A stretch of 64,000 nucleotides of DNA from Gnetum montanum (Eukaryota > Plantae > Gnetophyta). Location of the stretch: NCBI GenBank assembly GCA_015680685.1, contig MNCI01001083.1, positions 591,158 to 655,157 on the forward strand, written 5' to 3'. Shown one piece after another: positions 2,851-51,395 of the stretch. The notes beneath the pieces were generated by a model. The model made no database searches. It was not told where the DNA came from and worked only from the letters and a program-made list of their open reading frames with translations. A program made the translations under genes and the position numbers. Numbering within the stretch: position 1 is the first letter of the stretch; every line of letters begins with the position of its first letter.

Positions 2851-3581
2851 ATGCATGCATGCCTGCTTGGTGGGAGGTGATCACGGTGGGGTAGAGTGGT
2901 GGTTATGATAGGTGGAGTGGTAGGAGTTAGAGGGTGGCAACGGAGTGGAGTGTTAAAGGGTGGTGGCCCTTGAAATGAGGGCTACATTGATCCTTAAGGC
3001 CAACACAGCCCCATGTAGGGCTATGCTACTTTGTAGCCTCTGTAGGGCCTACATGACCCTTGTAGGGGTAGCATGGTTCTTGCTGCCTGCACATCGTCTA
3101 ATTTTTTTAATAAATAATAAATGATATTGGGGTTTGGGGTTAAACTTGTGACCTTCCATTTTTTTAATAAATAAAAAAAATTAAAAAATTGAATTTAAAA
3201 TTTTTAAAAAAATACTTTTTAATTCTAAAACTACACATAACCCAAGAAATGCTCTATCTCCCAAAATGTAAGTCATATTTTGAAAAAATTGGTACCGTTG
3301 GAATTGTCTCAAAGAGCACTATGGTTTAGCTAGAGATAGCACTATTTTGGTTGACTTATCAATCACAAAATCATGAAAAGCATGCATTATCTTGATTAAA
3401 TCATTAATTAACTTAAGTTGGCACTTCCTCTTTTTCTATGCTAAGATTCTTGCTATTTTTTTTTATAAATACATAAGAAAACAAATCTTTGCCATCATAG
3501 CACAACACTGGTGAAAGATTGAAGGATTCTTCAAGGATTGTTGAATTCCTAAAAGTGACATCAAAGATTCCAATTAACATT

Positions 3582-5683
3582 ATGACCCTAAAGTGTTAGG
3601 CTACTTCTCTAGCTCCTTCCCACGCCCAAGCTTATTTAGCTCCTTCAAGTAATGCCAAATCAGTATCCATTTTTCTGTATCAAAATAATGCAATTTTTGC
3701 TTCCAATCATGTGCATAGTTTACTTAAGAAGGAGGAGTTCTAGTATCTTATGTCTTCATGATTGTTTGAATTACTTGTGTTCCTTGTTTTCAAGGAAAGA
3801 TATTCCAAAAGCTTAATAGTTGAATGGTGTGATCAATATAATAAAAATGGAATTTCTACTTCATAATTAATTTTTAGATTAGTAGTAATTCTTCCTACTC
3901 ATGTTTGGATAATGTGTGGTTTTCACTATGGGGAGGATCCTTTAATTCCCTTAATTTTCTCTCCTAAGTTTAAATTATTTTGCCAAAAAAAATTATTCAA
4001 TTATGTTTGTGCTTCTATTATTTGCAAAAGCCAATTTTTTTGTAAAGATTTCATCAATGAAATTCATTTTGAGTTGTGCCAATTCATCCATCGGATGGTT
4101 TTATGGCATTAACACCAAATTCATGTTAGTGCCTATTTCATTTACATACTTCATGATGCCATAATTGGCAGAGTTTGTGATTGGTCATTATCTTGTTTCT
4201 CTATCTTGTATAATGCCATGGATGGAGTTGCTACTACCTTACAGAATCTCAATAAACCTTATACCATATGTTGCACACTTTTTATTATGTGTTTAATCCT
4301 AAGTTATGACCATTTAACCAAATGTTTTAGTTGTTACAATCCCTATTTATGTCCTAAATTTCTTGAAGAGGTTAGAGTTATAAAAAGCTAGATCGAGGGT
4401 GTAAGGAGGGGTCAAATGGTTTTCGAATAGGTTAAAAATCAAGAGGGAAGTAGCGAGGTATATATATGTGTCTATGTGTGTTTTGAATTCTTATTGTTGC
4501 TTATGTTTTTTTATGTATTGACAGTGCAATCTAGGTTGCAGAATGAGTCGGTTCAAGGTGCATAAACTAAGGATGTTCAAGGTACTTCATCTATTTAAGG
4601 TGCTTCAACCTTTAGACAGGTTTAGGCCTGAGAAAAAATCGAACTTACCAACTTCAAGGTATAAATACATACATACATACATACATACATACATACATAC
4701 GTATATATATATATAATTGCCTAGTTCATCGTTTTACTTGTATATTTACTTTTCTTATACATTTTTTTTTACAGAGGTAATGTATTGGGCAAGGTTATAG
4801 CAGCCTAATAGTTACAAGATAAAAAGGCCAACAACAAGCCCAACAAACTTCCACTCCTTCATCTTTCACTCCTCTATCTAAATCACTGCATGTGGCATCT
4901 ACTCATGCGACCCCATCTATTCATGCAACCCTAGTAAGGGGTTCCTTACCTCAAGCAGTGTTGACATTAGTTGTTGTGTCTATTCCAGTAACTCCTTCGG
5001 TCTCTATCTTGGGTTCCTCTTACTTACTCAGATAGATGGTGATGGCTGTTGAGAGAGAACTTGTTATTTTTCAACATCTGGATCATTAGATCATGCAGAA
5101 CATACCTTATTTTGTTCTCGAAGAGATCTTCCACATACATGACTCTCGAACATGCGACTTTAAGAAAGATTATGAACAGGTAAAAATTAGTGCTCCATCG
5201 TCCTTTCATCCAATTCCTGAAGATGCTTCAGAGGTTGTTAAAAATATGGAGCAACTCTTAGAAGAGTTGGAGAGTAAGACATGTCTTACTTGCTATCTAC
5301 TGACTCGTGAGCGATTCCTTCAAGTGGAGAGTAATTGATTGTTGGTGAGTATTTTTGCTCTTCTTTTTCTTTCTTCCATTTGATCTTCTTATTCATAATT
5401 CATAAGTTTGAATTTTGTTTTGTGTATGCAAAGGAAAGAAAAAGAGTGGCAAAAATACATGAAAGATTGATCTTTACAAATGGATGTGTTGGAGACCCAA
5501 CTGAAAAAGAGGGAGGAGGCATTGGTTGCAGCAAAAAGAACTAGTAAGTACATGAAGAAAATGTGTGACAACTTGGTGGGATGCAAAACAATGCTCTATA
5601 AAAAGGATGCCACTAATGAAGAATGGGAAGTGCAATTGAAGATAGTTTCAGATTTTCTTGATGTGTTCCAACAAAATGACTGA
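3582..5683 (+). pseudogene. Four-exon accessory gene antisense to chromovirus B1 (Transposase_32/PMD-like N-terminus, coiled-coil C-terminus), decayed
   Basis: TATAAATA ~3464, ATG 3582. Introns 4458-4524 and 4659-4774 (GT..AG) and 5345-~5433. Stop at 5681-5683, AATAAA ~5797. Exon/intron layout is conserved in copy B2. The last exon, MDVLETQLKKREEALVAAKR, is coiled-coil-like. Confidence 0.7.
4666..4715. repeat. (TACA)n-(TA)n microsatellite in intron 2 of the B1 antisense gene
   Basis: Directly visible. Confidence 0.95.
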
Positions 5684-5841
5684 TCACTGTTGTGCTTCTT
5701 ATTTTCCTTATTTTACATGTTCCCAATTTCTGTGTTTTGCTTCTTCTTTTATATGTATTCTTGCTTGGATGTACTTCTATTTCTTATAATAATAATAATA
5801 AAATAATATTTTCTTCCACTTTGGCTCCTGAATCATGGTTT

Positions 5842-5853
5842 GCTCTGATATCA
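5842..5853 (-). promoter_or_regulatory. Primer binding site, tRNA-iMet (B1)
   Basis: GCTCTGATATCA is the reverse complement of TGATATCAGAGC, one mismatch from TGGTATCAGAGC, and lies 2 bp from the LTR. Confidence 0.85.
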
Positions 5854-5855
5854 AA

Positions 5856-6359
5856 TGTGACATCCCATTCCCAATATTGTAAAAAACATGATCATTGATC
5901 ACTTAATTCATTACCTTCATCACATTTGTAGGTAATATAATAGAAATATCATAAAATAATTTGAATAATGAATAATTGATACATGGAATAGGAAAGAAAA
6001 TAGAAATAAAAATTTTATTAATAAGAGTGATTTATTGTAATGCCCTCTGGGTTATCTTCCCATGCCACTTAAGCCTTAGAGGCAATCCAACATTGCCACC
6101 ATGGTTAGGCTATCTAGTTGAAGGGGTGATTAGTTTCTTCTTGTACAACTTCATCCAACTCTCATCACTTGCCATTCCAGGCTCTACAACTCCATGCCTA
6201 GCATGGCCTCTAAACCTAGCCTTAAATGGCATAGGTTAAACCCATTCCCAAGGAACACATGAATAATTGTAACTTCTCATAATAAGGCATCCTTTTATTT
6301 AAAGGTTAATTACACTTTTACAATACATTTCCACCCTTAACAAGGGACAAGATGTTACA
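5856..6359 (-). repeat. 5' LTR of chromovirus copy B1 (504 bp)
   Basis: TGTGACATC...GATGTTACA inverted termini; homologous to 6917-7395 and 51396-51886. Confidence 0.9.
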
Positions 6360-6640
6360 CAAGGAATTCTATATAGAAAATATTTTAGAGGAATCTTTCT
6401 AGAATGTGTATTCAAGCAAAGAATTGAAGAAATCCTAAATCAATTTCATGATGATAGGGGCTTGTATTATGAATCCCCAAGAGCTACAATGTAACATATT
6501 CAAAGATATGGATTTTATTGGGTTACAGTATATAAGGGCTTTCAAAATAAAATTCTAACTTGCTATAAGTGTCAAATTCATGGACCAAAGCTAAAAAGAG
6601 TAAGTGCTTTATTAATGCTAGTAGTTGTAGATAAACCTTT
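6360..6640 (+). pseudogene. Ty3/gypsy integrase N-terminal zinc-binding fragment (outermost element)
   Basis: Translates as QGILYRKYFRGIFLECV..IEEILNQFHD...YGFYWVTVYK....LTCYKCQIHG, an HHCC-type region. Confidence 0.75.
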
Positions 6641-6916: not shown

Positions 6917-7395
6917 TGTGACATCTTGTTTTTAGATGCTAAAACATGATCAGTTGTTGCTTAAATCATTGTACCTGTGAGTGTTATAATGGAAATATAA
7001 TAAAATAACTTGGTACTAATGCATTGAATTTAACAAGAAGGAAAATATAGGGAAAACTTTTATTATTGAAAATGGTACATCATAATGCCCTTTGGTCCAT
7101 GCCACTTAGGCCTTAGAGGTAATCTAGAATTGCCACCATGGTTAGGCTATCTAGTTGAAGGGGTGATCAGTCCCTTCTTGTCTTGCTTCACCCAGCTCCC
7201 ATCACTTGCCATTTTTTGCTTCACAACTTCATGCTAGCATGACCTCTAAGCTTGGTCTTAAATAGCATAGGTCAAACCCTTTCTTGAGGGGTACGTGAAT
7301 AATCGTGACTCCTCATAATGAGGCACCCCTTCATTCCAAGGTTAATTACATTATTATAATACAATTCTACCCTTAATAAAGAATAAGACACTACA
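6917..7395 (-). repeat. 3' LTR of chromovirus B2
   Basis: TGTGACATC...CACTACA; colinear with 51396-51886. Confidence 0.9.
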
Positions 7396-7538
7396 TTCTA
7401 AACCCCTTAAGCATCTAGCTCATCCTCAAGCTCTTCTTTTATGTCCAGGTACTCAGTTGTTGCTTCACCATTATGCTCCTTAGTTTCAACTTCATTATTA
7501 CCTTCATTATCATCTGTACAAACAACGAATATAATTTA

Positions 7539-10500
7539 TTAATTTAATAATAAATAGAATTTATCATTCAATATTATGATGAGCAAAATTTTGGGGTAAG
7601 TGTTGAGAATGAACTCCATGTTTTTCCAAGTTTGTTGATCATCGTTTGACCATTGGACAAGTACTTCATTGATGATTTTATTACGAAGCTTCTTGGTTTT
7701 GTGATTCTTGATTACAATTGGCTTAACTTCAAAGTTCACATTGGATCTCAGGGGCAAGGTGTTCCAATCTAGCATATAAGGCACATCATTGTCATGAAAT
7801 TTCTTTATCAAACTTACATGGAAGATTGGGTGAATTCTTAAGGTTGTTGGAAGATTTGATGAACAAGCTACTTCAGAAATTCTTTGAGAGATTTTAAAGG
7901 GTGCACAATATTATGGGGCCAACCTAGTATATTTTTCCAATTTAAGGGAACTTCTGGTGGGTTTTACCCTTAGTAGTACTTGGTCTCCCACTTAGAATTC
8001 CTTCTTAAGTCAATGTTGGTCCACATATTCCTTATATTAGTCTTGGGTAGCTTGCAAATTTTGATTAACTCTTGTAACAATATTTTCCATTATTTTCATT
8101 TCTTCTTCCTTTCATTCCATTCTTAAGGTTGGATCTACCCAAGTCAGTGGTGTATGATAATTATGCCCATATATTACTTTGAATGGTGTTTGATGTATGG
8201 AACCTTGATAATTATTATTGTAGGTGAATTATGCTAAATGCAAGTAATTATTCCATGTCTTTAGTCTACTTCCAACATAGCTTCATAGAATATCTTCTAA
8301 TACTCTATTCATATGTTTGGTTTGACCATCTATCTCTGGGTGGTAAGCTATGCTAAATTTTAGTTGGGTTCCATATTCCTTGAATAAATTTTGCTAAAAT
8401 TCAAATATGAACTTGGGATCTTGATCCAAAGTGATAGATTTAGGACACCCATGTAATCGAGAAATTTCTTGTATAAATTTTTTAGACTACTTCATCGACT
8501 GTGTTTGTAGATTTTAAGGCTATAAAATGAGCCATCTTCGATAGGCAATCAACCACTACCAAAATTGAGTTATTTCCATTTTTGGTTACTGGTAATCCCA
8601 TAATGAAATCCATGGTAACACCTTTCCATTTCCAAGTTGGGACTTCCAAAGGTTTTAGTAAGCCACTCAATTTCTTTTGTTCAACTTTTATTATTTGGAA
8701 GGTTGTGCAATTTCTAATGTATGTGGATACATCATTCTTCATTCCAAGCCAAAAATAGGATTTTCATAACATCATATAAGTTTTGACATAACCTGGATGT
8801 CCTATGTATGATACTTTATGGGCTTCACACAATAGTTTAGGTCTCTAACTTCCTTTTGGTATATATAGTCTTTGTTCTTTCATTAATAGACCATTAAGGG
8901 CAAGTTGATAATGAGCTCAAAAAAAATATTAGTTAGGATCTTCTTAAAGTAAGAGTCTTCTTTTATTTTTTCCTTAATTCCTTCTTTGATAGGGGTTGTC
9001 ATAGCATCGATCATTAAGCTCCACATTCGACTAAGGGTATTGACTACTACATTTTGTTATATATTTGATTTCAAAATCATATTCAGCCAATAATTCTACC
9101 CATCATCATTTCAGGTATTCAAAATAGATTATCTTTGCAAGTATTCTAAACTTTTATGGTTTGTTTTTAGTACAAATATTTTTCCATAAACATAGTGTCT
9201 CCAAAATTTCAAAGTATGAATAATTGCCAGTAATTCTAAATCATGGGTTGAGTAATTTACCTTAGCTCCTCGTAATGTATGAGATTCAAAACATACCACT
9301 TTATCTTCTTGAGAAAGAACTATACTGATTCCAAATCCATAGGCATCTGTAAAGACTTTGAATGGTATTTTTTCATTCGAAATTCTCAGAATAGGCATAG
9401 TTGTGAGTAGCATCTTTAATATGAGGAAAGCTTTCCTGCATTTTTCATCAAACCTAAACACATGTTTTACTTATAAAAGGTTAGGTAAGAGGGCTACCAA
9501 GGTAGAATAATATTTACTAAAACATTAATAAAAACCTATTAAGCCCAAGAAACTGCAAACTGCTTTAGCATCTTTTAGTTCTGGCCAATCTCGAACTACA
9601 CTAACTTTTGCTAGGCCTACTTGTAATCCTTTTTTAGATACTATATGTGGTCCAAGTATGAAAATTCTTCTTTGAATAGTTTACATTTACTTAATTTTTC
9701 TTTCAAATGATGTTCCTTAAGGACTTCCATTGTAATGTTAAAATGTTTAATATGTTCTCCTCTTGACTTAGAGTAAAAAAGTATATCATCCATAAATACT
9801 ATAACAAATTGATCAAGGTACTCATGAAAGATATTATTCATTAATGCCATGAATGTTTTAGGTGTGTTAGTTAATCCAAATGGTATCACTACAAATTCAT
9901 ATAATCCATACCTAATTCTAAATGCACTTTTCTCAATGTCTTTTTCCTTAATCCTTATATGGTGCTAACTTGATTTTAAATCAAATTTTGAAAAATAACA
10001 TGTGCCTATAAGTTGATCAAATAGGTCATCAATCCTAGGCAAGGGATAAGTGTTTTTAATTGTCACTTTATTCAATGCCCTATAATCGATGCATAATCTG
10101 AACATACCATCTTTCTTTTTAATGAATAAGATTGGTGCATCCCAAGGTAAGATGCTAGGTTGAATCTTCCCTTCTTCCAACAATTAATCTAATTTTATTT
10201 TCAATTCTCTTATTTCATAAGTGGAAAACCTATAAGGGGCTTTAAAAACTAGTTGTATACTAGGAAAAATATCAATAGTGTGTTCAACATTTCTTTTAGG
10301 AGGTAATTCTTTGGTTTCACCAAATAATGAATCTTTCTATTCCTCAAGTTCTTTTGGAATCTCAATATCAAAAGGATTTTGAGGTTGAGTTACTTTAACA
10401 ATCAGAATAGTAGCACCCTTTTTGATCAATCTCTTAGCTTACTTAATAAATATCATGTGAATTTGGTTTACTGTTCCTACCTCCCTTAGACCCCTAACTC

Positions 10501-12046
10501 TGTTAGTGGTTGGGACTTTTAAAATACATGTTCCAAAGTGGGCAGTAATATCAAATTTTTGCAAAAAATACATTCCTAAGATTGCATTGAATTCACCTAA
10601 TTCAAATTCAAATAATTCATCAAGAAAAGGCATGTCTTGCAAAGTAGGTGATTTCTTCATACCTAGTGTGCTTACTTACAATCGTTCCATCTGCAAGTTT
10701 TATCCTAATGACTTTCTTGGAAGGTAAACTTAATTTCAATAACTTTATTAAAGTTGGAGAAATAAAGTTATTACTAGCACCATTATCGATCAAAAATTTA
10801 ATTTTCTTACCTTTAATTGATCCTTCAAAAATTAATAAAGAAAATTGAAATTTTCTTAAACTTGACTTAGCTAATGCTGAAATCTTCTTCATAGCTGTCA
10901 CAGTGGATTGGACTTTTCTTTTGGCCATGTTTGGATTGGGTTTTTGATTCTTGATTTTATTGTTGGTATTTGTGCTCATAATTTTGGGTAATCTCATTTG
11001 AAATGATCTTCACCATAAGAAAAACCTCCTGATCGAGCTCTCTTGGTTGGTGTTTCTTCTATCATTGCTTGTTAAAGGGTAGCTTGTACTTGATTTGATT
11101 CTTCATAGTCCTTAGCAAATCTATAAGCTTCATCAAATGTTTGAGGGTTATGCTCTCATGTCTAGAGTTGAAGTTGTGCATGTAGGCCACCAATAAACTT
11201 TGAAGCTAATTCTCCCTTATCCCAGTGGCTTACATACCAAGAGAGATCGCAAAATTCTTTGTAGTAATCTTCCACAGATCATCTTCCCAATCTTAAGGAA
11301 TCAAATCTCATCTTGTGCTCTTTGAGGAAGGAATCTAGTACAAATTTTTATTTAAAATATTGACAAAAGTTAAGCCAATTTGTAATCAATCCTTGAGATC
11401 TTAGTCCATTTTACCATGTTATTGCAAGTTCTCTCAAGTATAGGGAGATGACTTCTAAATGTTCTTGGCTTAACAAATTCAACAAAGCAAAGTAATTTTT
11501 CATTGTATCAAGCCAATCTTTCACCTTGGCACTAGATCTAGGGGCTTCATCATGTAGTGATCTAGTTTCACCTTTTTGGCATGAACTTGGGTTAGTGATT
11601 CTCTTGGTGCATTTTGCCAATTCCAAGATCCCTCACTTTTAGATTCCATTCTTTAACCTAATGAAGGGACATTTGCATCCTGATGTCCAATAGGTGGGGA
11701 TTGGTTTTTATGTTGATCCTTTGGGAGAAGTTGATCTTGATTTCGATCTTTGCAATGTGGGGATTGATCTTGGTGTTGGTCCCTTGGTGGAACGTGGCTT
11801 GGATTAGAAGGTTGGGAAAGATGGTCAGTTAATTACTTTATGAAGTCTGCAAAAGAATCCATCTTTCTTTGCACTTTCGACCATTTTTCTTCTAGACTTT
11901 GGGATAATTTCCTAATTTCTTTAGACATGTTTTGCATCTTTGTCTTGAATCCTTGATTTTATTGATGATGTTCCTGTTAGATACCCATAAGTTCATTAAT
12001 TTTTTCCTCAAGGACATTCATTCGATCATTAACTTGGGTCTCCATC
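7539..12046 (-). pseudogene. gag-pol of chromovirus B2 (Gag, aspartic protease, RT, RNase H, integrase, chromodomain)
   Basis: Gag KVKDWLDTMKNYF; protease FLIDNGASNNFIS; [52 protein letters not shown]; RH VFTDAYGFGI..NYSTHDLELLAI; INT WKGVTMDFIMGLP..ILVVVDCLSKMAHFI; chromodomain EVLVQWSNDDQQTW. Interrupted by stops and frameshifts. Confidence 0.95.
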
Positions 12047-13019
12047 TTTCTCCAATGTACTCTTTAAGTTCTAAACATTGGTAAGTTGAAGAAATCAGGT
12101 GTGTTGGTAATCCTTAGTCTCTATGGCCCTCTTTATGGGTCTCGAGGTAGTTAATTAGTTCCACGAGAGGCTAGAATTATCATGAACTTTTGCCCGACCA
12201 CAGAATCCTAATTTTTTCAAGATCGCAATTGATGCCTTAAAATTAATTTTTCATTGTTTGAAAGCTAAATTTGATGATTCCATGGTGTCCAAAAGGTTCA
12301 AATCTATTGAAAATGATTTTTGTTTGGTTGAAAAAAAACTCCAAAATCATGATTTATGGTCATTTTAGGTTTAAAAAAATTTCACATTTTTTAAGACTTC
12401 TTGAGAGGTCACCCATCCTAGTACTACTCTAGGATGAATGTGCTTAATTGTGAAATTTTTATCTCACATTCTGCTAAGGTGCCAATTTTTTTCCTTTTAA
12501 CAAAATTTTCCTAATGTCCATTTTAAATTTTGAATTCTCCATCAGTTGACGAAAAATTTGAATTTTCTATTGATTGATGAAAAATCTGAATTCCTTGTTG
12601 GTTGACAAAAAATAACTTTTTCATCATTGGGGGTAGGGTTGAAAAAAAGCAAGGATAGTGGTAGTGGTCATAGGGCATGGGAGAAATAGCTAGGGTGCAC
12701 AAGGAGAGTGGTAGCATCAATGTTTAGTGATGGACAATTGGAGGTGGGCATTGGTAGCACAAGTAGCTCATGTGCAATCCTCCTAGGACCCATGGGACGT
12801 AGGTGGGCTTGCATGCCCTTATTCAAGACTCACATAATCCAGGATGGGCTTTTGTAGCCCTTATATTAAGGCCAACGTGGCCTAGGCAGGGCTGGTGTAG
12901 CCCTTACCAAGATTTGGGCGATTCTCAATGTTACGTACATGGTAGTGACAAGGGTTTCCTATAGGGTGCCAAAGGCAATGATGATTTCTACAAGGTGCCA
13001 GAGGCAGTGATGATTTTCA

Positions 13020-13500
13020 TGGGGCATTAAAGGGAATGATGATTTTCAATGCTAGTGGTGTCCATAGTGTGCTAGAGAGGGTCATAATTTTCGGTGCTAG
13101 TGGTGTCTGTAGAGCATTGAAAGGGGTAGCAATTTTTGATGCTTGCCATGTCCCTGGTGCACCATAAGGGGAAATAATTTTTGACATTGGCGGTGTTTGT
13201 GATGTGCTAAAAGTGATAGCAATTTTGAGTGTTGGTAGTGTTTGCGCTATGCTTGAAGTGACAATGATTTCAAGCATTGGTGGTGTCTGCAGTACACTAG
13301 AAGGGGTAGTGATTTTCAACATTGACAGTGTCTACTATGTGCCAAAAGGATTAGAAATTTTAGGTGTTGATGATGCATCGGAAGGGACAATGATTTACAA
13401 CACCAGTAGTGTCCATAGTGTGCTAGAAGGAGTAGTGATTGTCAATGTCGATGGTGTTTGTAGAGGGTTAAAGAGATGAGAATTTCTAGCACCGACGAAC
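13020..13500. repeat. Degenerate 45-bp tandem array (~11 units) in the chromovirus leader
   Basis: (G/A)ATTT anchor recurs at 13041, 13086, 13131, 13176, 13221, 13266, 13311, 13356 and onward. It appears as a 15-aa periodicity in ORF 13017-13322. Confidence 0.9.
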
Positions 13501-15551: not shown

Positions 15552-15557
15552 GTTTTC

Positions 15558-34764: not shown

Positions 34765-34765
34765 T

Positions 34766-37900: not shown

Positions 37901-40900
37901 ACATTAAAGCATGCAATTAGTGTGCATAAGAAATCAATATTCAAAGGTATCTATACGTAGTAGCCACAAAATAAGAGGGCACCTAGTGGCTGAAAACTGA
38001 CTCAGATAGTAGTACATTATGCATGGAACTAACTGAGAGCCTAACATGTGCTTATGTTAATGGCATAGATAAATTTGAATAAGTTCATCCTCAAATCTTT
38101 GATGAAGATGATGATACCTATTGGGAAGAGTTGGAAATCCTTGATAACTTCAAATAGCAACCCCCAGAGCTAAAAAATTTACTAATAAGCATGGAATATG
38201 AATTTTTAAACAATGGTAAGCTAGTCATAATCAATGCCAAACTTGCTCCTAAATAAAAAGAAAAGTTGTTAAAGGTGGTTAGAAAATGGCCAATAACCTT
38301 TGCTTGGTCATATCCTAAGCTAACAGGAATCAATCCAAGGATATGCCAACATTGCATTTACATCGACTAGGCCATGAAGCCTAGAAGGTAGTCATAGAGA
38401 TGATTGAATCCCAAATTGAAGCAGAGTGTTAAAGAGAAAATTGAACAACTCCTTAAGGCAAGGCTCATCTATCCCATTGTGGATAGTGAGTGGGTTAGCC
38501 CACTCATAATTGTGCCAAAGAAAGATGGCAAGTCGTGGGTTTGCATTGACTTCAGGCTATTGAATATGGCAATGTTTAAATATCATTTTCCATTGTCATT
38601 TGTGGATCAAGTGTTGGATACCATATTTGGACATTACCATTATAGCTTCTTTAATGGTTATAGTGGCTATAACCAAATCCAAATTGTGCTAGAAGATCAA
38701 GCCAAGACAACATTCATGAGTTCTTGGGAGAATTTTGCATATTGTAAGATGTGATTTAGTTTGTGCAATGCCCCTATAATATTTCAATGTCTAGTCCTTA
38801 GTATTTTCCAACAATAGATCGGTAGTGATGTGGAAGTCTTCATGGATAAATTTTCCACCTATGAAGCTACATTTGAGCAAGCCTTGGACTACCTTAAGCA
38901 AGTATTCAAGAGATGTATTGAAATAAGCATACGACTCAATTGGCAAAAGAGCCATCTCATGATCCAAGATGACATTGTATTGGGGCACCGAATTTCACAA
39001 AAAGGGATTGAGAAAGATCTAGAAAAGATAAGGATCATCCAAGGAATTAGACGTCAAATAGAGATAGTCAAAGATGTCAGATCATTCCTTGGATACACTG
39101 GCTACTACCAGAGATTCATAGAGAATTTCTCTAAGATCACAAAATCATTGGTAGAGCTTACAAAGAAAGATGCACCTTTCATCTAGAGTAAGGAATGTGA
39201 ATATACATTCCAATAGTTAAAGGAGAAACTCATAGAAACACCAATACTATGAGCACCAGATTGGTCTAAACCCTTCCACATCATGATGGATGCATCTAAC
39301 TATGCCATGGGAGTGGTGCTCATGTAGATGGATGATAGGAAACACCCATATTACATCCACTGTATAAGATGAAGCATTGTGGAAGCATAATTAAATTACA
39401 CCACCATAGAAAAAGAACTAATGACCATGGTGTATGCTTTGGAAAAGTTTAGGCACTATGTGCTTGGCTACAAAGTCTTTGTGCACATAGATCACAATGT
39501 AATCTACTTCCTCATGAACAAGCTGGTGGTGAGTCCTCATATCATACAGTGGCTTATGATCTTGTAGGAATTTGATATCATGATGGTAGATTGAAAAGGG
39601 ACCAAGAATGTAATGATTGACCATCTCTCTCACTTAATTTGGGATAATAAAGAGAAGGAGAACCTACTCTCTGATTAGTTTCTAGATGAAATCCTCTTTA
39701 CAGGAGCAATAAATGAAAAAACGCCCACAGAAAAAACATGGTATAATGGCATTCTCATTTATCTTCTCAATCAGGAGATTCCATAAGATTTTGACTTTAG
39801 AAAGAAGCAACAATTTCTTCATTGGGCCAAATATTTCATGGAGATCAATAGATACCTTTACAAGGTGTGCATTGATGGCCTAATTCATTGGTGTGTCCCT
39901 AACGAAGATCAACTGCATGTTTTCCAAGATGCTCATGAAGGGCCTTGTGGAGGCCACTATGTAGGGAGACCCATGACCATAAAAATCCTAATGGTAGGAT
40001 ACTATTAGACTACACTCTCCAAAGATGCCCACTAGTTTGTCAAATCTTGTGAACATTGTCAATGTGATGGGGAGATGACTACTCACATGGAAGGTCCTCA
40101 ATAGTGGATTCAACCATTGGAACCTTTTGACATATGGGGCATTAACTTCATGGGTTCCATCACATCCATGTTCAATAGAAAGGCATATATTATTATAGCA
40201 GTCGAATACTGCATAAAATGAGCAGAAGCAACAGTTGTTACTGATTATACATCATCCATTGTTGCTAGATTTATACAAAAAAATATTGTAAATAGGTTTG
40301 GGGTGCCACGTTCACTAATTTTTGACAATGGAACTCATTTCATAGGTGCCACTTTTAGAATGTTAATGCTACACTTGGGGGTTGAACATAAATTAACAAC
40401 ACCCTACCACCCCCAAGCCAATGGTCAAGCAGAGGTAACTAACTAGAGGATCATAAAAATACAAATGCGGGCTATTAGAAAATATAGGAAATATTAGAGT
40501 ACAAAACTTAATGATTCCCTCTGGGCTTACCATTCAACATGGAAAATTCCTATTGGCTACTCTCCCTATGAGTTGGTGTACGGAAAACTTCCAATGTTCC
40601 CAATTCAATCTGAGCTTCATACACTCTCAACATTTTGTGATCTAAATCTTGACCTAAGTCTATCACAAAAAGAAAGATTTATCAAATTGAATGTGCTAGA
40701 TGAAAATTGATTAGTGGCCCTATCTTTGAATGAGGTGCATAAGGCATTCAATATGTAATGTCATGACCTAGGAATACAAAAGGTAAAACTTCAACCAGAA
40801 GATAAGGTCCTCTACTAGAGCCCCACACATATACCCCAAAGGGTAAAATTTCAAACATTGTGGGAGGGACCTTATCTAAGAAATCAAACCTTTTTCTTTG

Positions 40901-40990: not shown

Positions 40991-43113
40991 CCAGTGCAAC
41001 TACCACCTTGATGGATGTACAACCATGTTCCATTTTCAGATCTCTTCCTTTCAACTTAGTTGTGGGGGAGATGGCCATCCATTCTAACAATCCATATGGA
41101 TTCTCAATTTTTTCTACTTTTTGTTTTCCACATTTTTGATTTTACAAGTTATTTATTTTACAAATTTTTGATTTTCAGATTTTTCTAGTTTTACATCATC
41201 ATTAATACCTTTGAAACCTTCTTGATCATTTTACACTTTCTTATATATTTTACTTGTTTTTATTTTTTTCAACTATGATATCTCGTCATGTTTGCTAATA
41301 AAATTGCTTTATTCCCATAGGACACAATGTTGTTGTTGTTGTTTACTAATGATGGTTTGTGCTTAATGTTGTGGTTGTTGATGTATGGTTTCTATTTTTG
41401 AATTTTGATGTGTGATGACTATGACATGGTTTATTTTTCATGGAACAGGTAGTGAGTCCACATCATCCACCCATCCAATAGACTCTATGGTTTTTCTTGT
41501 TTTGGGATTTTGAGGTTCCTTCCATTATAGAAACTTTTAATCAATCAGTGACCTTGGTAGTTATAGAATTAGGAAGGATTCAAAGGTTTGTAAAGGGTGT
41601 GACTTCAAGGGAACTCAATACTCTTCATACTCTTCTACTTTCTTGAGTGCTTGAGTGTTTTTCACGGACTTCTTACCATTCCATTCCAACCACTAATAGG
41701 AAGTCAAATAAAGTCTTTGCATGATGTGATTCCCATCCAGAAATTCAAAAAAAAAATTATGAGAATTCAAAGCATGCCTTTTAGACAAATAAACAGGTTG
41801 CAAACACTAGTTATGGGACTAAAAAGACATGCACCCATGGCTAAAGGTCCCCTCTAACTAAGGTCATCTCTCACTTCCTAATTCTCTCTTTTCTTCTCTT
41901 TATGGATCGGTGGTTGTTTTGTGGAAGCAGTCTCATGTCTTGTGTAGGTGGGCCAGTCTTAGAGTGGCGATGCAAAGTCACTGAAAGTAGCTGGTTTTAG
42001 TTTGGACTAACGATGGATCTTCTTAGGTCATTTTAAACACAAATCCCACAAGTCACTTCTTATGACCTCAATTCGGAATTCCATTCCACCTTCCCTAGCA
42101 TCTATCCATGCTGCCATAAATCACCTTGCTATTGGGTTCTATGTTATGCTCTATGTCTTGGTCTGATGTGCTTGAATTCTTAGATAGATTCTTTTTGGTC
42201 AGTCCTTAACTTTTCATGACCATTAATCAACTGTGTGACCCATGGACTCCTTAGTTGAGGTTATGCAAGAACAACAAGGGAATGAGCTTGCTGTAGGGAG
42301 GACCCACTTGCATAGCTCTTGGTTTGGTTAGTTAAGATTCCTTACCTTAGACATTGCTACAATCCTATTTTTTGCATATTCCACTATGTATTCCACTTAG
42401 TTCTCCTTAACCTTTTATTTCATTCATCCTTTGAATCATTTTTCTCCATTTTTCCAAATTTATGAGCTCCAACATCCTCTTCTCATATTTTCATATTTTT
42501 CTTGGCCTTTTAAGCTTTCATTTGATCCCAATTTCGTTCAAAAACTCTTTGTATTTTGTAAGTTTGATCAAAGTCAACGGTTGTTTATAGTGGTCAATAG
42601 CTGCATCAATGAGGCCTCATTAATGTAGTGCAAAACTCCTATATATACCACTGCACACTTGGAAATTTTTGTCATTTTCCTCATAACACATGGGGAGTTT
42701 TTGCCATTTTTCAAAGCCCAAAACCTTTCAGAGCCTTTCAGAGCCCTTAACTTCCCACTTGTTTGTCCAAATCATTTCATTCTTTAATCCTATAGCTACT
42801 AGAGGTAAGCTCTTTATCATGGGGGCCGCAAATCTTAAGGTATCCAATGAAATTTTTTGAAAATTTTTCTAACTCCCCCAAAGGGTTAATAACCCTAACA
42901 ATATACAAACATCAATTTTTTTGAAAGTTAACCCTTTCAACAACCTCTAGGATGATTTATTAATAGTAGCACATAAATAAAATAATGATTAGAGTAATTA
43001 AATCAACCATAATCACAACTTAGCCAAGTGTAACTATCCTAAAGAGATAAAGGTATCCCAATTACATCATGTTACATAACAATTGCTAACCCATGGTCTT
43101 ATTGTAATTATAG

Positions 43114-45960
43114 ATGGCACCAAGACCTAAGTGCCTATAGGAAGGAGAACCTTCTCAACCAAGGGAGAAATGGCCCAAAGCTAGAAGGGGCCAACAAGAA
43201 CAAGCCCAAGAACTACTAAAAAGAACCCATGCAACAGGACCTCTTCATGAGAAGCCTGAAGTGAAATCTATTCGACAGATTCTAGAAGAAGAAGTGCCCA
43301 TAGAAAAATAATAGCAAGGAGAAGTGTCAGGATTTGCGCCAAGGTTTGAAGTCACTTTGACTTAAGCTTTCCTTCACATTGTTAGGTATCGAGAGATTCA
43401 ACAATCAGTTCTTTAGGAAATAAACTTTAAGCCATTCTTAGAGAAAGCTCCAGTAGATGTCAAAACACAACTACAAATCCCTTCCATATGGCCAATCATC
43501 ACATCTAGTGGGGAATGGTACATGGGAGAGACATATCTCTTTTGGAACAATAGAAAGTTGGGGTTCATAGTCAAAATCAAGGATATTTAGGTGGCTTAGC
43601 TAAGGTTATCATGTAGGCACTAGGGTTTCCTAACATTGGGACACAACTAGTAGAGCTATTAACGAAAGATGATCCTGAGGCCAAAAGAAGTGGACTTAGT
43701 GGTGCTACGGGGTCAACTGTAAGGAGTACGATGTGCTCACATCGATGGACTACATCTATTTCAAAATTGTGGTCTATCACCTCAATCCAATGGTGAGGCC
43801 TAGCAAGTTAATTGTCTTCTCCACTTGAGCATGTGTTGCTCTAAGTGGGAGATTTCTTATCTATAACTTATCTATTTGGAGATTGAAATATGTTTCAAGA
43901 AAAATGAATATGGAAGAAAAACCCGACCCTTTCCATGCCTTATTCGAAAACTCTACAAAAGTGCAAGAATTTTTTGCTATGCCAACAACACAATTAGGCA
44001 TGCTCCTTTGGCCTCATGGTCTAAAATCATGAAGGAAAAGATGCCAATTACAACTCAAGAAGAGGAGTAACTTCCACCACACCCTACTAAAGAAATAATG
44101 AAAAAGGCCCATGCAACCATTAAGCACTTGCACAAAATATGAGAGTAGCTCTTGCATGAGCAAGAGCAACGTGCAAGGACAAGTAGTGCGAATCCATTTG
44201 TGTACTACCTAGAAATGAGTCACCTTAATGAGGTGGCTTGAAAAATCAGCTAAATGGAGAGGGATGGATCAATTTTCTTTTCCCAATGAATGAAGTTGCC
44301 CATGAGGTCTAATCCAAATGCTCAAGAGGTGATGGTGTCATTATCTCATTACCATTTATTCCTAGAAATCTCTAGGAATGTTGCCACCTTCTTGATGCAT
44401 TTGGAGGAAGGTGAAGGGGAAACTATCCTAGCGATGTAGCACCAAGGGGAAGAGACAGTGATTGAAGTGGTTGCTAACCATGTCATCAAAGCACTAAATG
44501 CACCTGTGGCATTTGTACCTGATGTATCTGCACTTTAAGATGTGCAAACATTTGCAGGCATGGTCAGCAAAAAGTTTAATGCAACCCAGTATAAAGAATT
44601 ACTGAATCAATTGGTGGGGATTAGGCAATCGATTCTAGATATTTTTGATTTTTCAAGAAACATCACCACAACCTAGTTGAAGTTGTTGTAATCAAGGGGA
44701 AAATGCATCATCCTAGAGGGGAAACTAAAAATGACTCAAGCACAAAATCAATGCTTGACTATGGAGGTTGTTGAATTAAGTGCCCATCTTGCTGATCCTA
44801 CAATCCTTAGCCCAACAACAACCAGAGAAGAAGCTTTCCAACAGCTTTAAGAATGATTCAAGAAGGTTGAGGAGGAAGTGGTAATGGCCATCTTCAACTA
44901 GTTCATATCAGAAGCAAAGGCGTATTCAATTTAGAAGAACTTGGCTTAGATGCACTAGGAGAACGAAACTCTGACTGCATAGAATCATCGCTTGTGTAAT
45001 GTTGATGTCTAGAAGGAACAAATGTAAGAATGTATTCATCAACAATAGGAGCAGCTTGCCAAGGTGAACACTGAGGCAAGGAGATTGGATGTAGAAAATT
45101 AGAATTTTTCAATGGAGGAAGTTTGTGCCATGTGCTAGAAATCTACTATCAAGATCGCCTCCTGGAAAAATAAAGCCTTGAAATTTGAAAAAGTCAAAAA
45201 TCACTATAGAGACTAGTTTGGTTTGTAGAAGGAAGTAAATGAAAAGCACATCCAAATGATGAAGAAAAAAAAATAAATGAAGCTCTCCAGTAACTCCAAC
45301 AAGGAAGAGAAGTTTGGTAGCCCATCGTTGATGGGATTAATGCCTACAACAAAGTAGAGATCTAGCTAAAGGAGTTGCAGATAGAAGAAATGATAGAATA
45401 CATTGAGTTGGCCAATCTTTGATATGCGAACCTAGCTATGTTGACTACCAAACAGCCATAGTTAGAGTTAGAGAAATAAGTGACTAGCTTGTATTTGCTA
45501 TATGAGGAAGAGTTCAAGCATCATAAAGACACCAAGCAGAAGTTTGAGATTGCAAATGTTGAACTCAAAGTTTTCAGAGCATAATTCACAGATCAATGAT
45601 CAACTACTGAGAACCTAGCCAAAAGGATGAATGATTACTAGGAGTTGAAGGATACAGTTAGAGTGTTCAACATTGAATGCAAATAATTTTTTTCTGTTTT
45701 TATTAATGCAATGGAGCTATTTTCAGCAATTTTGTGTCCCTAGGATGTGCCTATTCTGACCCACATTAGCGAAGTTGCATGGATAGTGCATGATCCTAGA
45801 AGTAAGGACGAGAAAATGAAAGCACTACTAGATGCTTTCTACCTTCCACTAGAAATCATAGCAATAATAGGACAATTGTAGCTGCTTGAACCGCTACACG
45901 TGTGTGAAGCTAGTAAAGGTCCCTTAGAACCTCAAGAGCTATTATCTCTTGGGATTGTTT
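43114..45960 (+). pseudogene. Sense-strand accessory (env-like position) gene of element D, Transposase_32-like plus long coiled coil, with its own promoter and leader intron
   Basis: TATA CCTATATATA ~42638; intron 42805-43113 (GTAAGC...CTAAC...TAG) directly before ATGGCACCAAGA; motif RPFPCLIRKLYKSARI; E/K-rich heptads 44600-45660; further acceptor TTTTCAG ~45726. Confidence 0.7.
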
Positions 45961-46199
45961 GATCTTCTCCACCAAAGTTCATGCCATCAAGGAACGTGCT
46001 ATCCAATTTTGAAGAGTCATGTTATGGTGTTCAATTTTGTGTCATGAACACCACCATTTTTGTAATGTGTTAATCCATACACTCAGGCACTTCGTTTTTG
46101 TTAAGTTTGTTTTATTTGTGAAAGGTTATTCAATAATCCCATACCTTTCCAATTTTGTAAAAGAACTCAAGGATGAATTTTCATTTAGTCTTGGGGTTA

Positions 46200-47130
46200 T
46201 GATAAGTCGCAGTTTTGTTGGCTATGTTGATGAGGCCTCATCAATGTGGCCTTGTCGACTAGGCCTCATTGATGAGGACTCATCAACGCATTGTATCATG
46301 TGTTGATGAGGTTGTCATCGACACAGTGTTTGTATTTTTCCTATAAATATGTGCTTGCTAGTCACATTTATGGCATCAAGATTTCAATAGTAGAAAAGCT
46401 CTTGTAGTTTTCATTTGAGAGTTAGAATTTTTCTCCTAAGTGCTCGTAGCAGGAGTCATTGAGTGTACGAATCTTTATTTGAACATTACTGTACTTGAGC
46501 ATGATAATGTGTGTGGCAATAAAGACGAGCTTTTTGATAAAACTTGCAGCAGTTTGGATAGATTAAATATTTCATTTATGCATTTAATGTTTTTAATTAT
46601 TTATTAAATGTTTCTAATTATTTATTAAATTATTTCCAGTGATTATGCTAATGAAGCAATTAACTAAGATAAGTGAGATAGATTAAACACACAAGTACGA
46701 CCACTTCGAGCATAATGTGTATTCACTTGGTAATCCTAGTAGCATTATTGCTTGGTACGCCCAGTAGTGTAGTGCTTTGTAACCTAGCAATGGATACATG
46801 GGTTCAAGACATGTGCAGAAAGTGGGACTAGATGCTTATGTTAGGACTAGTTAGACACTAGTTAATTAGTTAATTTAAATTAGTTAAATCCAATTAATTT
46901 TATCTTCCTTTAAACACAAAATGATAAAAATAAAATGCCTCAATTATACTTAACCATATGAGTGTACATCACAATTTTAATTGGGAAGACAACGATTGAC
47001 CTTAAGACAAAGATTCACTCCTTAGAAGACTAGTGTGCCAGAAACTACAAAGTTCGTAGAATTCAACCGGATCATGCATGAACACTTGTGATTCATATGG
47101 TTGGGCATATGGGTGCCTCGTCACTCATTA
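46200..47130 (+). repeat. 3' LTR of element D
   Basis: TGATAAG...CTCATTA; preceded by PPT and followed by TSD. Confidence 0.95.
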
Positions 47131-47338
47131 GTTAGCCTCCATAACCATCTTCCTATGAGCTCATTACCATTTCCTTGTCATAACCTTACTCCATCATCAT
47201 GAGTACTCTTCAGCATGGTTCAACATGACTAGATCAAGTGCAGAGGAAAAATGTTGGTGGTCCACATGTAGTGGTGTTTTGTATTCTTTGTTAGTGTCTC
47301 TCAAGTTAATCCCCTAAACACCAACAAAGAGGGGCCAT

Positions 47339-48779
47339 TGAAATACCACCAAAATTTGCATGTTGTAGCCATTTTTCATCTTGTAGCCTTCACCCCATGA
47401 AACCCGAGGTAAAACTTCATTGTAAATATGAAGATTGCAATCCATGAGGGGAAATCTCACATATCTCATACTTTTGGGATTGAAAAATGCCTCATAAGTG
47501 GTTAAAGCCTCATCCCCCAAGTAGAGAAAGTCATGTACTATTTATATTTGGGCTTGGGGAGGGTGTCAAAAATGCCTTTTGGGATGCCAAAAATGACAAC
47601 TTGATGGGTTTTATGAGGGGTATAGCACTTTCTACACTAGAGATGCATGTATGAGGGGTTGTGGTTCACCTACCCCCAACATGAAGGGGTACAACCCACC
47701 TACCCCTAGTGTGGAGGAGGTGGCAGTCATCATGCACAATGTGGAGGATGGTTTGACCTTCTCCCCTAGCATTGAGTTCCATCCTCCCAGTGTTGATGCG
47801 TCATCCACCCAGTGTAGAACCAACTTGACCTAGATTTCAATGTTGCATCAACTCCAACTATGATTCTGCATGCTAGTGAAGAAGGTTAAAGGCCCAACAT
47901 CAAAGAACAAGGCCATCATGGATGATGTGCCCTAGTTACTATTTATAGTAAATGGAATGCCCATGGGGGTATGGTATTTTCCATACATATTAAACCCCTC
48001 CAATTTGGGTAACCATCTCACCTATACATGGTTGAAATTTATAGTAATTTTTTAGCCAATTTGCAGTCCCATTCATGGTCCAAAACCTATAAAACCTAAG
48101 CTCCAACACCATTTTTAGGTTTCACACCTTTTGTATTCATATGCTTTGGAATTTGTAGCATCTAAGAGCTCTTACACACTTACAGAAATGTAGCTTCTTA
48201 GATCCCCTCAGCATGGAACCCTTGTGGACTTGTAACCCCCATTACCCCCTTGGGATTTTTGAGTTTGTGGCTTCTATGATGTGCTCTTGGGAACCTCCAC
48301 TCCCAACGTTGCCCACCTTGGTAGACCAAATTTCTCATACTTATCAATCCCCTAGCAATAACCAACATTGTAGATTTGAAGTAGTAGTAGAGGAGGCTTC
48401 GATAACATCAAGAGTGGTAGAGCATTTGGATTTTGGAGTGGACTTCATTAGCTTCAACAGACTTTGAACCCCTGTCCAAGTGAACCCTCCTTTGCTCTCT
48501 TATGGGCACTTCTTGTACACATCCCTTGAACTCATTCTTTATTTTTTAATAAAGTTTTAAGATTTTAGTTTTTTGTGCAATTTGTGTTTGCTCTTGGTTA
48601 TTCAGATCTGTATTTTTCTTTTTATATTATTCATTTTGCATTCTCTAAGTCCCTGGGTAATCTACTAGACCATCCAAGGTGCCCTCAATCCCATTTTTTG
48701 GAGGCCTTAGGGATTCGAGGTTGAGGATGCTATGCTAAGACTTTTGATTTTCCAGTGATCAAATGTTCTGGTTGCAATA
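47339..48779 (+). repeat. 3' LTR of element C
   Basis: Colinear with the 5' LTR; preceded by a PPT and followed by the TSD. Confidence 0.92.
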
Positions 48780-49412
48780 GAGACAACACTGGTTTTCCTA
48801 ACCTATCAACCAAAAAATCAAGAAAAGTAAGCATTAACTTTAATTAATTATTAATTATCTTAAGTTGAAACTACCTCTTTTCTCATAGTTAAGATTCTTG
48901 GTTTCTTCTATAAATACATGAAAGAAGAAATGTTTGCCCATCGTAGAATTAGTAAAAAGATTGGGAGATTTCTACAGGTGATAAGATTTTTACAAGTAAC
49001 ATCAATGGCTCCTAAGTGTCCTTTACAAGCTTCTTCTCAAGCGTAAGCTCCTTTAGGTAGTCCTCAATCAGTGTCTATTCTCTTGAATGAAAATAATGTA
49101 GTCATTGCTTTCGATTTTGTGCATAACTTACTTGGAGTGATGATTTTGATATCTATCAATGTTAGGATTGTCTCAGCTACTAGTCTTTCCTATTTTTAAA
49201 GTGTCATATTACAAAAATCTAATAGTACAATGGTGTAATGGCTATGATAGAAGTAAAAGTTCTTCTACATAAATGACCTTTGGACTGTTAGTGATTACTT
49301 TGGTTGATAAATGTAGTTTTAGGTTTTTAGTTAGGGGAGAATTCCTTAATCCCTTCTATTTTCTTTCTTAAGTTTTAAAAGTTTTGCCAAAAAGAGTTAT
49401 TTGATTGTATTT

Positions 49413-49518
49413 GTGATTCTGCTATCTACCAAAGTTAGTTTACTTTCGGTGATTTTATTAATGAAGTGATTCTGCTATCTACCAAAGTTAGTTTACTTTT
49501 AGTGATTTTATTAATGAA
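49413..49518. repeat. 53-bp tandem duplication in exon 1 of the B2 antisense gene
   Basis: GTGATTCTGCTATCTACC...ATTAATGAA occurs twice with 2 mismatches; single copy in B1. Confidence 0.9.
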
Positions 49519-49903
49519 ATTAATTTTGAATAATGTCAATTTATTCATAGTAAGGCTTTATGACATCCACACCACTCCTATGTTAGTGCCTATTCCATCT
49601 ACATTCTTCATGGTGCTAAAATTGGTAGGGTTTATGACTTGTCATTATCTTATTTTTCTAGCCTTTCATCTTGCCATGGAATGTGCTACTACTACAAAGC
49701 AAAATCCACAAAACCCTTACATGTTCCAGTGATCATGGCCTTAATTTTAAGTTACAGTACTTCAACCAATATTCTTAGTCATTTCAATCCTAGTTTACAT
49801 CTTGAGTTTCTTGAAGAAGAGAGAGTTGTGAGGAGTTAGATCAAGGATGCAAAGAAAGGTCACAGGGTTCTTAAATAGGCCCAAAATGTAGAAGAAACTA
49901 GTG

Positions 49904-49906
<3 letters not shown>

Positions 49907-49938
<32 letters not shown>
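49907..49938. repeat. (TA)n microsatellite in intron 1 of the B2 antisense gene
   Basis: Directly visible. Confidence 0.95.
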
Positions 49939-49943
<5 letters not shown>

Positions 49944-51395
49944 TTTATTATACTTATTTGTTCATTATGTATTTTTATGTATTTATTGGTAGTGCAATTT
50001 GGGTTGCAAAATGAATCTATGGAAGGTGCTCAGACTTTTGAAGGGGACCAATCAACTTCAAGGGCAGTGATAAAGCTCAGTTCTAAGGTTTATATATCTT
50101 TGGACTACTTTACTATTTCTAATTTGTATATTTTTTTTCTAAATTTTTTTCTCTTTTTTTTTTATGAAAACAACATATTAGGAAAGGTTCTAGTAGTCTA
50201 GTAATTTTAAGTTCCAAACAAAAGGAGAGTGCTAAAAAACAAAAGACTAGCACCAAACAAAAACATAAAGGAAAGGAACTTGAAGGAAATTTAATCATGT
50301 ATGAAGGTTTAAATACTTTACTTCTCTTCTTCTTCTTGTGTGGTGTTGACTTCGTGTTCATTATTTTATGTGGCAGATCTCTCTGGGTCAAAGGTACTTC
50401 ATTCAGAAGTTGCATAGGAACACTATTATAGAGACTGAATCTACTCCAACTCCTCCACCAAGACCACCAAGCATGACTTCACCTCTTATGATCCTAGTAA
50501 GGGGTCCTTTTTCACAAGCTGCATTGGTGTCTCTTGTTCCTAAACTCCTATTACCATTATGGATTCCCCTTTCTCTCTCTAACAGATGGTGGTTATTACT
50601 AAAGAAGAACTTGTTCTTTTTCAGAATGTTGGTCAACGAATTGCAAGGAATACTCCTTATTCCATTTGTGAAGAAATGTACCACATGAGGGAATCTAGGT
50701 CTTGTGACTTCAAAGGAGATTATGAATTAGTGTGGGTTGGTGCTGCATCTTCTTTTCATCTAGTTTCTACGAATGCTCCATGAGTTATCAAAAATCTGGA
50801 ACAATTCAAAGGAGAATTGGAGAGTACCACATGTCTTACTCATTGCTTATTAAACCAAGAACATATTCTTCAAGTTGAGAATGATCAACTTCATGTAAGT
50901 TCTTTTCCTTTCTTTATTTCCCTTATTTTTATCTTTACACTCATTATGTTGATTGATGTCATTTTTTGTATGAAGAGGAAAGAAATAGAATGGCAAGAGG
51001 ACATGTCCCAATGGTCTATTCAAGTAAAGTTGTTAGAAGCCAAACTTGTAAGAAGAAATGAGGCACAGGTTGAAGCTAAGAGTGTAGCCAAATATATCAA
51101 ACAACTATATAACAGTTTGGCTAGGTGTCAGGTAGTATTTAATAAGAAGGACACTAGCGAAGAGGAATGAGAGGCCTAGTCGAAAGCCATTTCAGATCTC
51201 CTTAGCATCTTCAAATAGAATTGATTCTTGTTCTACTTTCCTTGTTTCTCTATTCTACTTCCTCTAATTTGTTCCGTTTCATTTTCTTACTTTTTATGTA
51301 TTACACTTCAATGTATTGCTTCTTTATAATAATAAAATTTTAATAGTATTTTCTTCCACTTTGGCTCCTAAATCATAGTTTGCTTCAATAGTAAA

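Follow-up and report, generated by a model that had tools for sequence, protein, structure and literature searches.

Spliced accessory genes beside family-specific repeats in three decayed Ty3/gypsy lineages of Gnetum montanum

What do the extra genes of plant long terminal repeat (LTR) retrotransposons do, and could any of them act on the very element that carries them? The function of such extra open reading frames (ORFs) is an open question (PMC6317226, PMC7264820), and a 64,000-nucleotide stretch of Gnetum montanum DNA (GenBank assembly GCA_015680685.1, contig MNCI01001083.1, positions 591,158 to 655,157 of the forward strand), which we call the window and number from its first letter, holds three candidates. 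A chromovirus, an Ogre/Tat element and an Athila element, all Ty3/gypsy, each appear to hold an extra gene, decayed and marked by splice signals, next to repeats of that element alone. A sequence-only reading had taken these for one spliced, separately promoted cassette with a common domain, possibly recognizing its own element's motif; the anatomy it described proved largely right, and the common domain found no statistical support.

The elements are nested, with Athila (33833-47128) inside Ogre/Tat (14109-48779), itself inside the 5' leader of a minus-strand chromovirus, copy 1. A second, truncated chromovirus, copy 2, ends near 2850 next to a PIF1-like fragment. All are decayed, every accessory frame is broken, and the longest open frame anywhere in the window is no more than 172 codons.

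Accessory genes and their splice signals

The chromovirus provides two copies of its accessory gene, which can be compared directly.

3465..3472, plus strand: TATA-like site of the copy 2 accessory gene, aligning to 48910 of copy 1
3582..5683, plus strand (antisense to the element): copy 2 accessory gene, exons 3582-4457, 4525-4658, 4775-5344 and 5432-5683, the last acceptor decayed
49005..51224, plus strand (antisense to the element): copy 1 accessory gene in the 5' leader, with several frameshifts
49906-49992, 50088-50168, 50307-50376 and 50895-50975, plus strand: introns of the copy 1 accessory gene

The ATG at 3582 in copy 2 aligns with 49005 in copy 1, just as the TATA-like site at 3465 does with 48910, and four splice sites of the two copies align exactly (4458/49906, 4524/49992, 5345/50895 and 5431/50975). 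With the best frame picked exon by exon, the copy 2 gene contains 14 stops in 610 codons, against a window background of 7.0 per 100 (P=1.5e-7). The ratio of nonsynonymous to synonymous substitution (dN/dS), which the sequence-only reading had proposed as a check, is 0.31 over 445 codons between the copies and ranges from 0.33 to 1.84 in shifted frames; in each of the three exons tested, variation is highest at third codon positions. The chromovirus accessory gene has been under purifying selection in the past. A scan for T-rich segments also flags parts of exon 1 in the chromovirus copies, and two acceptors are decayed.

In the Tat element, the gene lies antisense between protease (PR) and reverse transcriptase (RT).

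20800..24320, ends approximate, minus strand (antisense): Tat accessory gene, six exons, with frameshifts in exons 3 and 6
23914-23804, 23522-23397, 22345-22242, 21985-21894 and 21748-21638, minus strand: Tat accessory introns, all GT..AG
25853..25858, minus strand: tentative TATA candidate of the Tat accessory gene, the sole TATA(A/T)A(A/T) match on the minus strand of 24320-26400
19825..29576, plus strand: 9.75-kb non-pol interval from PR to RT, with a T-rich phase-1 AG acceptor and a phase-1 GC candidate donor

Run without guidance along the minus strand of this gene, the T-rich scan returned exactly five segments, which coincide with the five introns proposed. Stops in four of the exons number 1, 1, 2 and 1 (P=6e-4, 0.009, 0.057 and 0.15, respectively). 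On the plus strand, a PR-like frame, assigned by eye and given no match by Pfam, stops near 19820, and pol picks up again at 29577. A spliced intron between PR and RT occurs in Ogre elements (PMC4408406; further Ogre background in PMC6431247 and PMC9289625), and the interval here may be an expanded Ogre intron that hosts the whole antisense gene; the RNA runs over 4401-24400, a stretch that takes in its left end, showed no read spliced across it. A repeat of about 29 bp occurs near both ends of the interval and again right after the integrase stop (20197-20280, 29290-29400 and 32951-33062).

The Athila gene stands in sense orientation after the integrase.

42603..42646, plus strand: lone copy of the Athila palindrome, then a TATA-like site (42640)
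42805..43113, plus strand: GT-AG intron in the 5' untranslated region (UTR), ending at the ATG
43114..45960, plus strand (sense): Athila accessory ORF, about 950 codons, with 50 stops and one frameshift near 45270; the coding part has no intron
43759-43971, plus strand: Transposase_32-like stretch of this ORF (Pfam)

Its depletion of stops is slight (38 in 719 codons, P=0.037, and 12 in 229, P=0.18), and TAG makes up 29 of the 50 stops (P=4e-5), an excess expected of the methylation-driven decay of a true frame. An extra gene in each of the three lineages, as originally claimed, is thus borne out by aligned splice sites and dN/dS in the chromovirus, T-rich GT-AG segments in Tat and a TAG-biased frame in Athila. 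Introns had been claimed for all three; coding introns were found in the chromovirus and Tat, and that of Athila lies in the 5' UTR only. Separate promotion is supported by TATA-like sites in the chromovirus (3465 and 48910) and Athila (42640) and is tentative for Tat (25858).

Each time spliced RNA is copied, a retroelement loses its sense-strand introns. Antisense genes, such as those of the chromovirus and Tat, would not have their introns spliced from the genomic RNA and could keep them within the coding region; the same strand logic would explain why the sense Athila gene has an intron only upstream of its ATG.

Transcripts were sought in six RNA runs with the same species label, four over 42000-52000 and three over 4401-24400, one run serving both. 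Reads are sparse and mostly less than 95% alike to the window and therefore derive from other copies. In the oligo-dT run X20, one of the three on its stretch, six reads run from the end of the third chromovirus exon directly into the last, skipping the 87-base intron; the junction was read by eye in the unmatched ends of the reads, most of the loose ends not being displayed. It may reflect splicing in a related chromovirus copy, and an intronless DNA copy could look alike. In two further runs, 14 and 4 reads fall on the corresponding copy 1 exon, and no spliced read was found at the Athila 5' UTR intron in the four runs over 42000-52000. Elsewhere, a 37-base stretch at 12395-12432 drew about 3000 and 1900 reads in two runs; the flanks of these reads are other sequence, and the stretch probably resembles some abundant transcript over a short length.

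Could all of this be chance patterning in decayed, AT-rich DNA? The frames are all broken, no database relative turned up, and identity in the chromovirus exons (0.63-0.83) is no higher than in the introns (0.69-0.81). Against this stand the depletion of stops, the dN/dS of 0.31, the aligned splice sites, the five of five T-rich segments bounded by GT and AG, and the X20 reads seen by eye; chance is very improbable as an overall explanation, and for the chromovirus and Tat genes it is already mostly disproved.

Family-specific repeats

Beside these genes lie two kinds of repeats, palindromes in Tat and Athila and a tandem array in the chromovirus.

26380..28933, unstranded: 12 dispersed full copies of a 20-bp Tat palindrome, spaced 142-377 bp
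13004..13480, unstranded: 45-bp tandem array of about 11 units, with period 45 topping the autocorrelation

The 12 full Tat palindromes compare with 0.04 expected, a number reached by none of 100 shuffles; their spacing is irregular, and their flanks are unlike one another. The Tat LTRs hold half-sites only, at a 30-bp period, with 8 and 10 at one mismatch where about 1 is expected. In Athila, the palindrome is found five and four times in the two LTRs and once more at 42607, just ahead of the accessory TATA, such that the order of palindrome and then TATA is common to the LTR and the accessory gene. Each motif keeps largely to its family: all 26 Tat half-sites of the window lie within Tat, with none in the chromovirus or in Athila, and the Athila half-site is found 12 times in Athila, never in Tat or the chromovirus and four times in the flanks. 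A family motif is accordingly common to the LTR and the accessory upstream region, as a whole palindrome in Athila and as a half-site in Tat. The sequence-only reading had placed the palindrome at both sites in each family; this stood for Athila, whereas in Tat the LTRs carry half-sites only and the array is separated from the first coding exon by 2.0-4.6 kb and from the candidate TATA at 25858 by 0.5 kb. A candidate that we tried, the Athila accessory promoter as a copied LTR segment, had marginal backing only, the alignment scoring 103 against a shuffle maximum of 101.5.

The putative CpG columns of the motifs hold TG/CA mixtures, which supports the former CpG richness that had been proposed and indicates that these copies were methylated. 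For the chromovirus, the 45-bp array is real and, with the Tat insertion discounted, precedes the TATA of the copy 1 accessory gene by about 0.75-1.2 kb; copy 2 ends before the matching position. As a cognate LTR motif, the array was ruled out by the lack of LTR copies.

The closest layout in print is that of the Sireviruses, Ty1/copia elements in which family-specific, palindromic CpG boxes cluster ahead of the TATA in the LTR and again in front of the extra, env-like ORF (Bousios et al. 2010, PMC2829016; 2016, PMC4728375). Athila repeats this arrangement in full and Tat with half-sites in the LTR. The present elements differ in being Ty3/gypsy, in the full Tat palindromes being internal only and in having spliced genes, two of them antisense. 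The Sirevirus boxes were interpreted by their authors as promoter or CpG-island sequence, with no common host factor found (PMC2829016), and the palindromes are also hotspots of small interfering RNA (siRNA) that may aid silencing (PMC4728375).

The Sirevirus interpretation suggests a similar one here: host factors would read the motifs as promoter or CpG-island elements, copied to the LTR and the accessory promoter, and the protein would do some other job, such as RNA export, help with particles or integration, or the dampening of RNA silencing. The Athila palindrome stands directly ahead of a TATA, and a 5' ORF of sunflower Tekay has been tied to double-stranded RNA-binding folds (PMC11728184), both in keeping with host reading. 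It is less easily squared with motifs that differ wholly between families of one host and with a 12-copy Tat array that, spread over 2.5 kb, exceeds the needs of a simple promoter. We consider host reading possible, a little less likely than the self-acting regulator described next.

The reading that we pursue, also tentatively and as a possibility somewhat short of even, is that of a self-acting regulator. The encoded protein, likely nuclear and probably dimeric, would act on its own element's repeats and so keep that element transcribed. The accessory genes would be driven from within the element by promoters in which the LTR motif is used again, and the LTR and the gene would then be co-regulated. 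In favor of this reading we count the gene structures and the selection on the chromovirus gene, the X20 junction, the family specificity of the motifs, the palindrome and TATA order common to the Athila LTR and accessory gene, the Transposase_32 leads of Athila and Tat described below and, from the literature, the reports on PMD, the predicted DNA binding of TRP28 and the failure to find a common host factor for the Sirevirus boxes. The nearest precedents are VANC proteins of VANDAL elements (PMC5735166) and host PMD proteins MAIN/MAIL (bioRxiv 2024.09.27.615353); the former system likewise pairs an element-borne extra gene with family motifs repeated in noncoding regions. Such repetition is found in Tat and Athila, and the chromovirus array stands at one place only. 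Unlike the present elements, VANDALs are DNA transposons with nonpalindromic 8-9-mers, for which binding and demethylation have been demonstrated.

The elements and their neighborhood

The following features complete the three elements.

5858..6359, minus strand: chromovirus copy 2 5' LTR, with the primer site on its left
6917..7396, minus strand: chromovirus copy 1 3' LTR, 84% to 51395-51887
7400..12100, minus strand: decayed chromovirus gag-pol with a C-terminal chromodomain (RVT_1 and Chromo matches)
14109..15551, plus strand: Ogre/Tat 5' LTR, half-sites at 14437-14536 with a 30-bp period
30103..31750, plus strand: Tat RT, RNase H (RH) and additional RNase H (RVT_1, RVT_3)
33833..34762, plus strand: Athila 5' LTR, matched part, palindrome array at 33862-33961 with a 14-bp period
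38461..39690, plus strand: Athila RT-RH (RT match)
46196..47128, plus strand: Athila 3' LTR, matched part, palindrome array at 46224-46311 and TATA at 46342
47337..48779, plus strand: Ogre/Tat 3' LTR, half-sites at 47676-47775
51395..51887, minus strand: chromovirus copy 1 5' LTR, pairing with 6917-7396

The window is plant-like in composition, with 25-43% GC and strong depletion of CpG. Its self-comparison yields three nested LTR pairs, each 83-84% identical with transitions dominant, and their Kimura two-parameter distances (0.187, 0.184 and 0.197) are nearly equal, so the three insertions fell within one period. The Tat insertion is flanked by a 5-bp target duplication with one mismatch. 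RT was detected in all three elements, with identities of 23-29% between them. The chromovirus is assigned by RVT_1 (E=5.5e-23) and a Chromo match at the pol end (E=0.006, below the curated cut-off), the latter depending on piece boundaries, as an earlier piece that was cut differently missed the chromodomain. Tat is recognized by an additional RNase H after RH (RVT_3, E=5e-12 at 31301-31750) and by gag-PR being set apart from pol, and Athila by a non-chromovirus RT-RH, no additional RNase H and a sense ORF after the integrase. We take the innermost element to be Athila on RT signatures rather than a reference tree; the primer site of chromovirus copy 2 is presumably of the tRNA-Met type.

Several neighbors touch on these elements. 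A piece at 674-1036 is related to the Athila LTR; as its match starts at 46130, the true left end of that LTR may lie ahead of 46196. Positions 769-796 form a near-perfect 28-bp palindrome whose CpGs are still intact, within the only stretch of high CpG ratio (0.75 vs. 0.07-0.34 elsewhere). The fragment adjoining the end of chromovirus copy 2 (1552-2850, minus strand) is a PIF1-like helicase, E=2.7e-5, probably Helitron-derived. A 43-bp tandem repeat in three units occupies 33440-33570 in the Tat 3' region, directly before the Athila insertion, and a decayed Ty1/copia element spans 51940-61000, with a gag match (E=2.7e-17) at 51977-52750.

Possible common descent, known systems and meaning

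Whether the three genes are one cassette depends on their N-terminal domains, for which the sequence-only reading had claimed a shared Transposase_32/PMD pattern followed by a coiled coil. To the eye, the three domains do present their motifs in an order like that of the Transposase_32 alignment and of a PMD pattern, and we take this likeness as a lead only. In Athila, Transposase_32 (PF20167) is the only Pfam match of the domain, in two pieces (E=0.01 and 0.065); it reaches 16.2 bits against a cut-off of 45, covers the C-terminal half only and was obtained on a sequence with stops. Pfam gave one spurious match on 15 long frames of the window, and on 15 shorter pieces it found Transposase_32 in two from Athila and unrelated weak matches in one from Tat, leaving 12 blank, three of them in the wrong frame. 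For a Tat piece, the nearest named clusters in the Atlas are ATHILA and Transposase_32, at 0.80, a value often reached by shuffled proteins, and we treat this proximity as a lead only; the chromovirus piece had no usable Atlas match. Profile-profile scores are at chance, except for Athila against Transposase_32, whose score was reached by one in 40 shuffles.

Wider searches added little. Sequence searches of the PDB returned chance rows or nothing, and two scans of viral contigs nothing. A metagenome scan gave 120 loci, of which 13 have long open frames; 11 were aligned, and both of the two tested are Transposase_32. In the follow-up search with Transposase_32, the best 120 of 1011 matches consist wholly of close relatives, and those that carry a name come from soybean. 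AlphaFold models of the domains are poor (pLDDT 44 and 52), and fold searches with them gave no clear match; a VANC-like fold is possible. Five of the seven C-terminal pieces are rich in E, K, Q and R.

A number of results weigh against a shared domain or a self-acting regulator. The three domains are not significantly similar in any pair, their local scores being reached by 215-235 of 500 shuffles. Three database searches, two word-based ones with the chromovirus and Athila domains and a full HMMER run, found no relatives. Run over 1278 tiles, a profile of 122 soybean-type Transposase_32 proteins failed to pick out any of the three domains, its top match being a spurious antisense integrase frame. 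Heptad periodicity is weak, with the best region matched by 9 of 200 shuffles and the other six by 17-119, and the coiled coil had been overstated. The 45-bp unit is absent from all three chromovirus LTRs and has no copy elsewhere in the window, and contig depth over the array is 23 against hundreds to thousands alongside, depth not being copy number. VANC targets are 8-9-mers without dyad symmetry (PMC5735166); the VANC analogy is reasonable in view of the reported structural likeness of PMD and VANC DUF1985, but the VANC motifs in print are short, nonpalindromic and not CpG-rich. Finally, across the six RNA runs, of very low coverage, no joint was called at any accessory intron, leaving the X20 reads as the positive part of the RNA check. 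The soybean-profile negatives are weak, since so narrow a profile barely detects Athila itself, and distant, decayed sequences give similarity tests little power.

The N-terminal domains may, on these faint signals, belong to a Transposase_32/PMD-like class. That a single mobile cassette was reused across the lineages has no statistical support, and we think it unlikely. An ancient shared cassette of PMD/VANC fold, a spliced gene whose dimeric product would bind its own CpG palindrome and shield the element from methylation, is by analogy conceivable and similarly improbable. It draws on reports that PMD resembles VANC DUF1985, that host PMD proteins sit on DNA motifs and that an anti-silencing role has been suggested for element-borne PMD (bioRxiv 2024.09.27.615353, PMC13547354, PMC5418596). 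We also doubt the converse, namely, three independent captures of unrelated folds, with the repeats either by-products of replication slippage or acting as RNA hairpins and small-RNA hotspots. The chance-level pairwise scores, the differing intron number and gene position, the sorting of extra ORFs into 314 unrelated groups (PMC6317226) and the Sirevirus siRNA hotspots (PMC4728375) all speak for separate origins, but two of the three domains give weak leads to one family, and slippage poorly explains Tat palindromes with irregular spacing and unlike flanks.

Much of the setting of a self-acting regulator is already in print: extra ORFs with PMD or Transposase_28 and a coiled coil, the likeness of PMD to VANC and the Sirevirus palindrome layout. 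Such ORFs are frequent and of diverse kinds, Ogre having PMD, Retand Transposase_28 and Athila ORF1 (PMC6317226), and PMD-plus-coiled-coil and Transposase_28-plus-coiled-coil ORFs are described in Tat lineages (PMC4408406); the Retand TRP28 is a predicted DNA binder near repeat arrays (PMC11963269). Those ORFs, like the Tat gene here, are often antisense, with a conserved N-terminal domain, a helical C terminus and repeat arrays nearby; unlike it, they lie 5' of gag or 3' of pol, whereas the present gene sits between PR and RT with five introns and has no PMD or Transposase_28 match. Maize Grande has an antisense gene with its own promoter, gene23, and a nuclear product, located 3' of pol and with introns unmentioned in the passages cited (PMC7264820). 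Athila Transposase_32 and Tekay 5' ORFs are known from sunflower (PMC11728184, PMC12844716). The former (PF20167; PMC11728184) is, as here, a sense ORF after the integrase, to which our weak match agrees, but it has 487 codons against about 950, and the internal TATA and LTR-type palindrome of the present gene suggest a promoter of its own rather than LTR-driven splicing. The Tekay ORFs (PMC11728184) resemble the chromovirus gene by layout, being in the 5' leader and kept under selection; the gene here is antisense and has three to four introns. The multi-intron antisense genes, one of them within a possible 9.75-kb Ogre intron, are what is unusual. The passages searched described neither an antisense accessory gene with several introns nor an accessory gene placed between PR and RT, and in none of them was a protein of an LTR element tried on the motif of that element; any of these may be in print.

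ORF-based surveys require at least 250 open codons (PMC6317226) and would miss multi-intron antisense genes, which may be undercounted. For three lineages within a single host, the window offers concrete candidate pairs of protein and motif, and as at least one family is apparently still spliced, by the six reads seen by eye, the idea of self-binding can be tested on natural copies. A shared cassette, if true, would mean that VANC-type anti-silencing also operates in LTR retrotransposons, and it would join the long-unassigned extra ORFs and the LTR palindromes into one protein-motif pair, and antisense placement, once within a 9.75-kb Ogre intron, would be how a retroelement carries an intron-rich gene.

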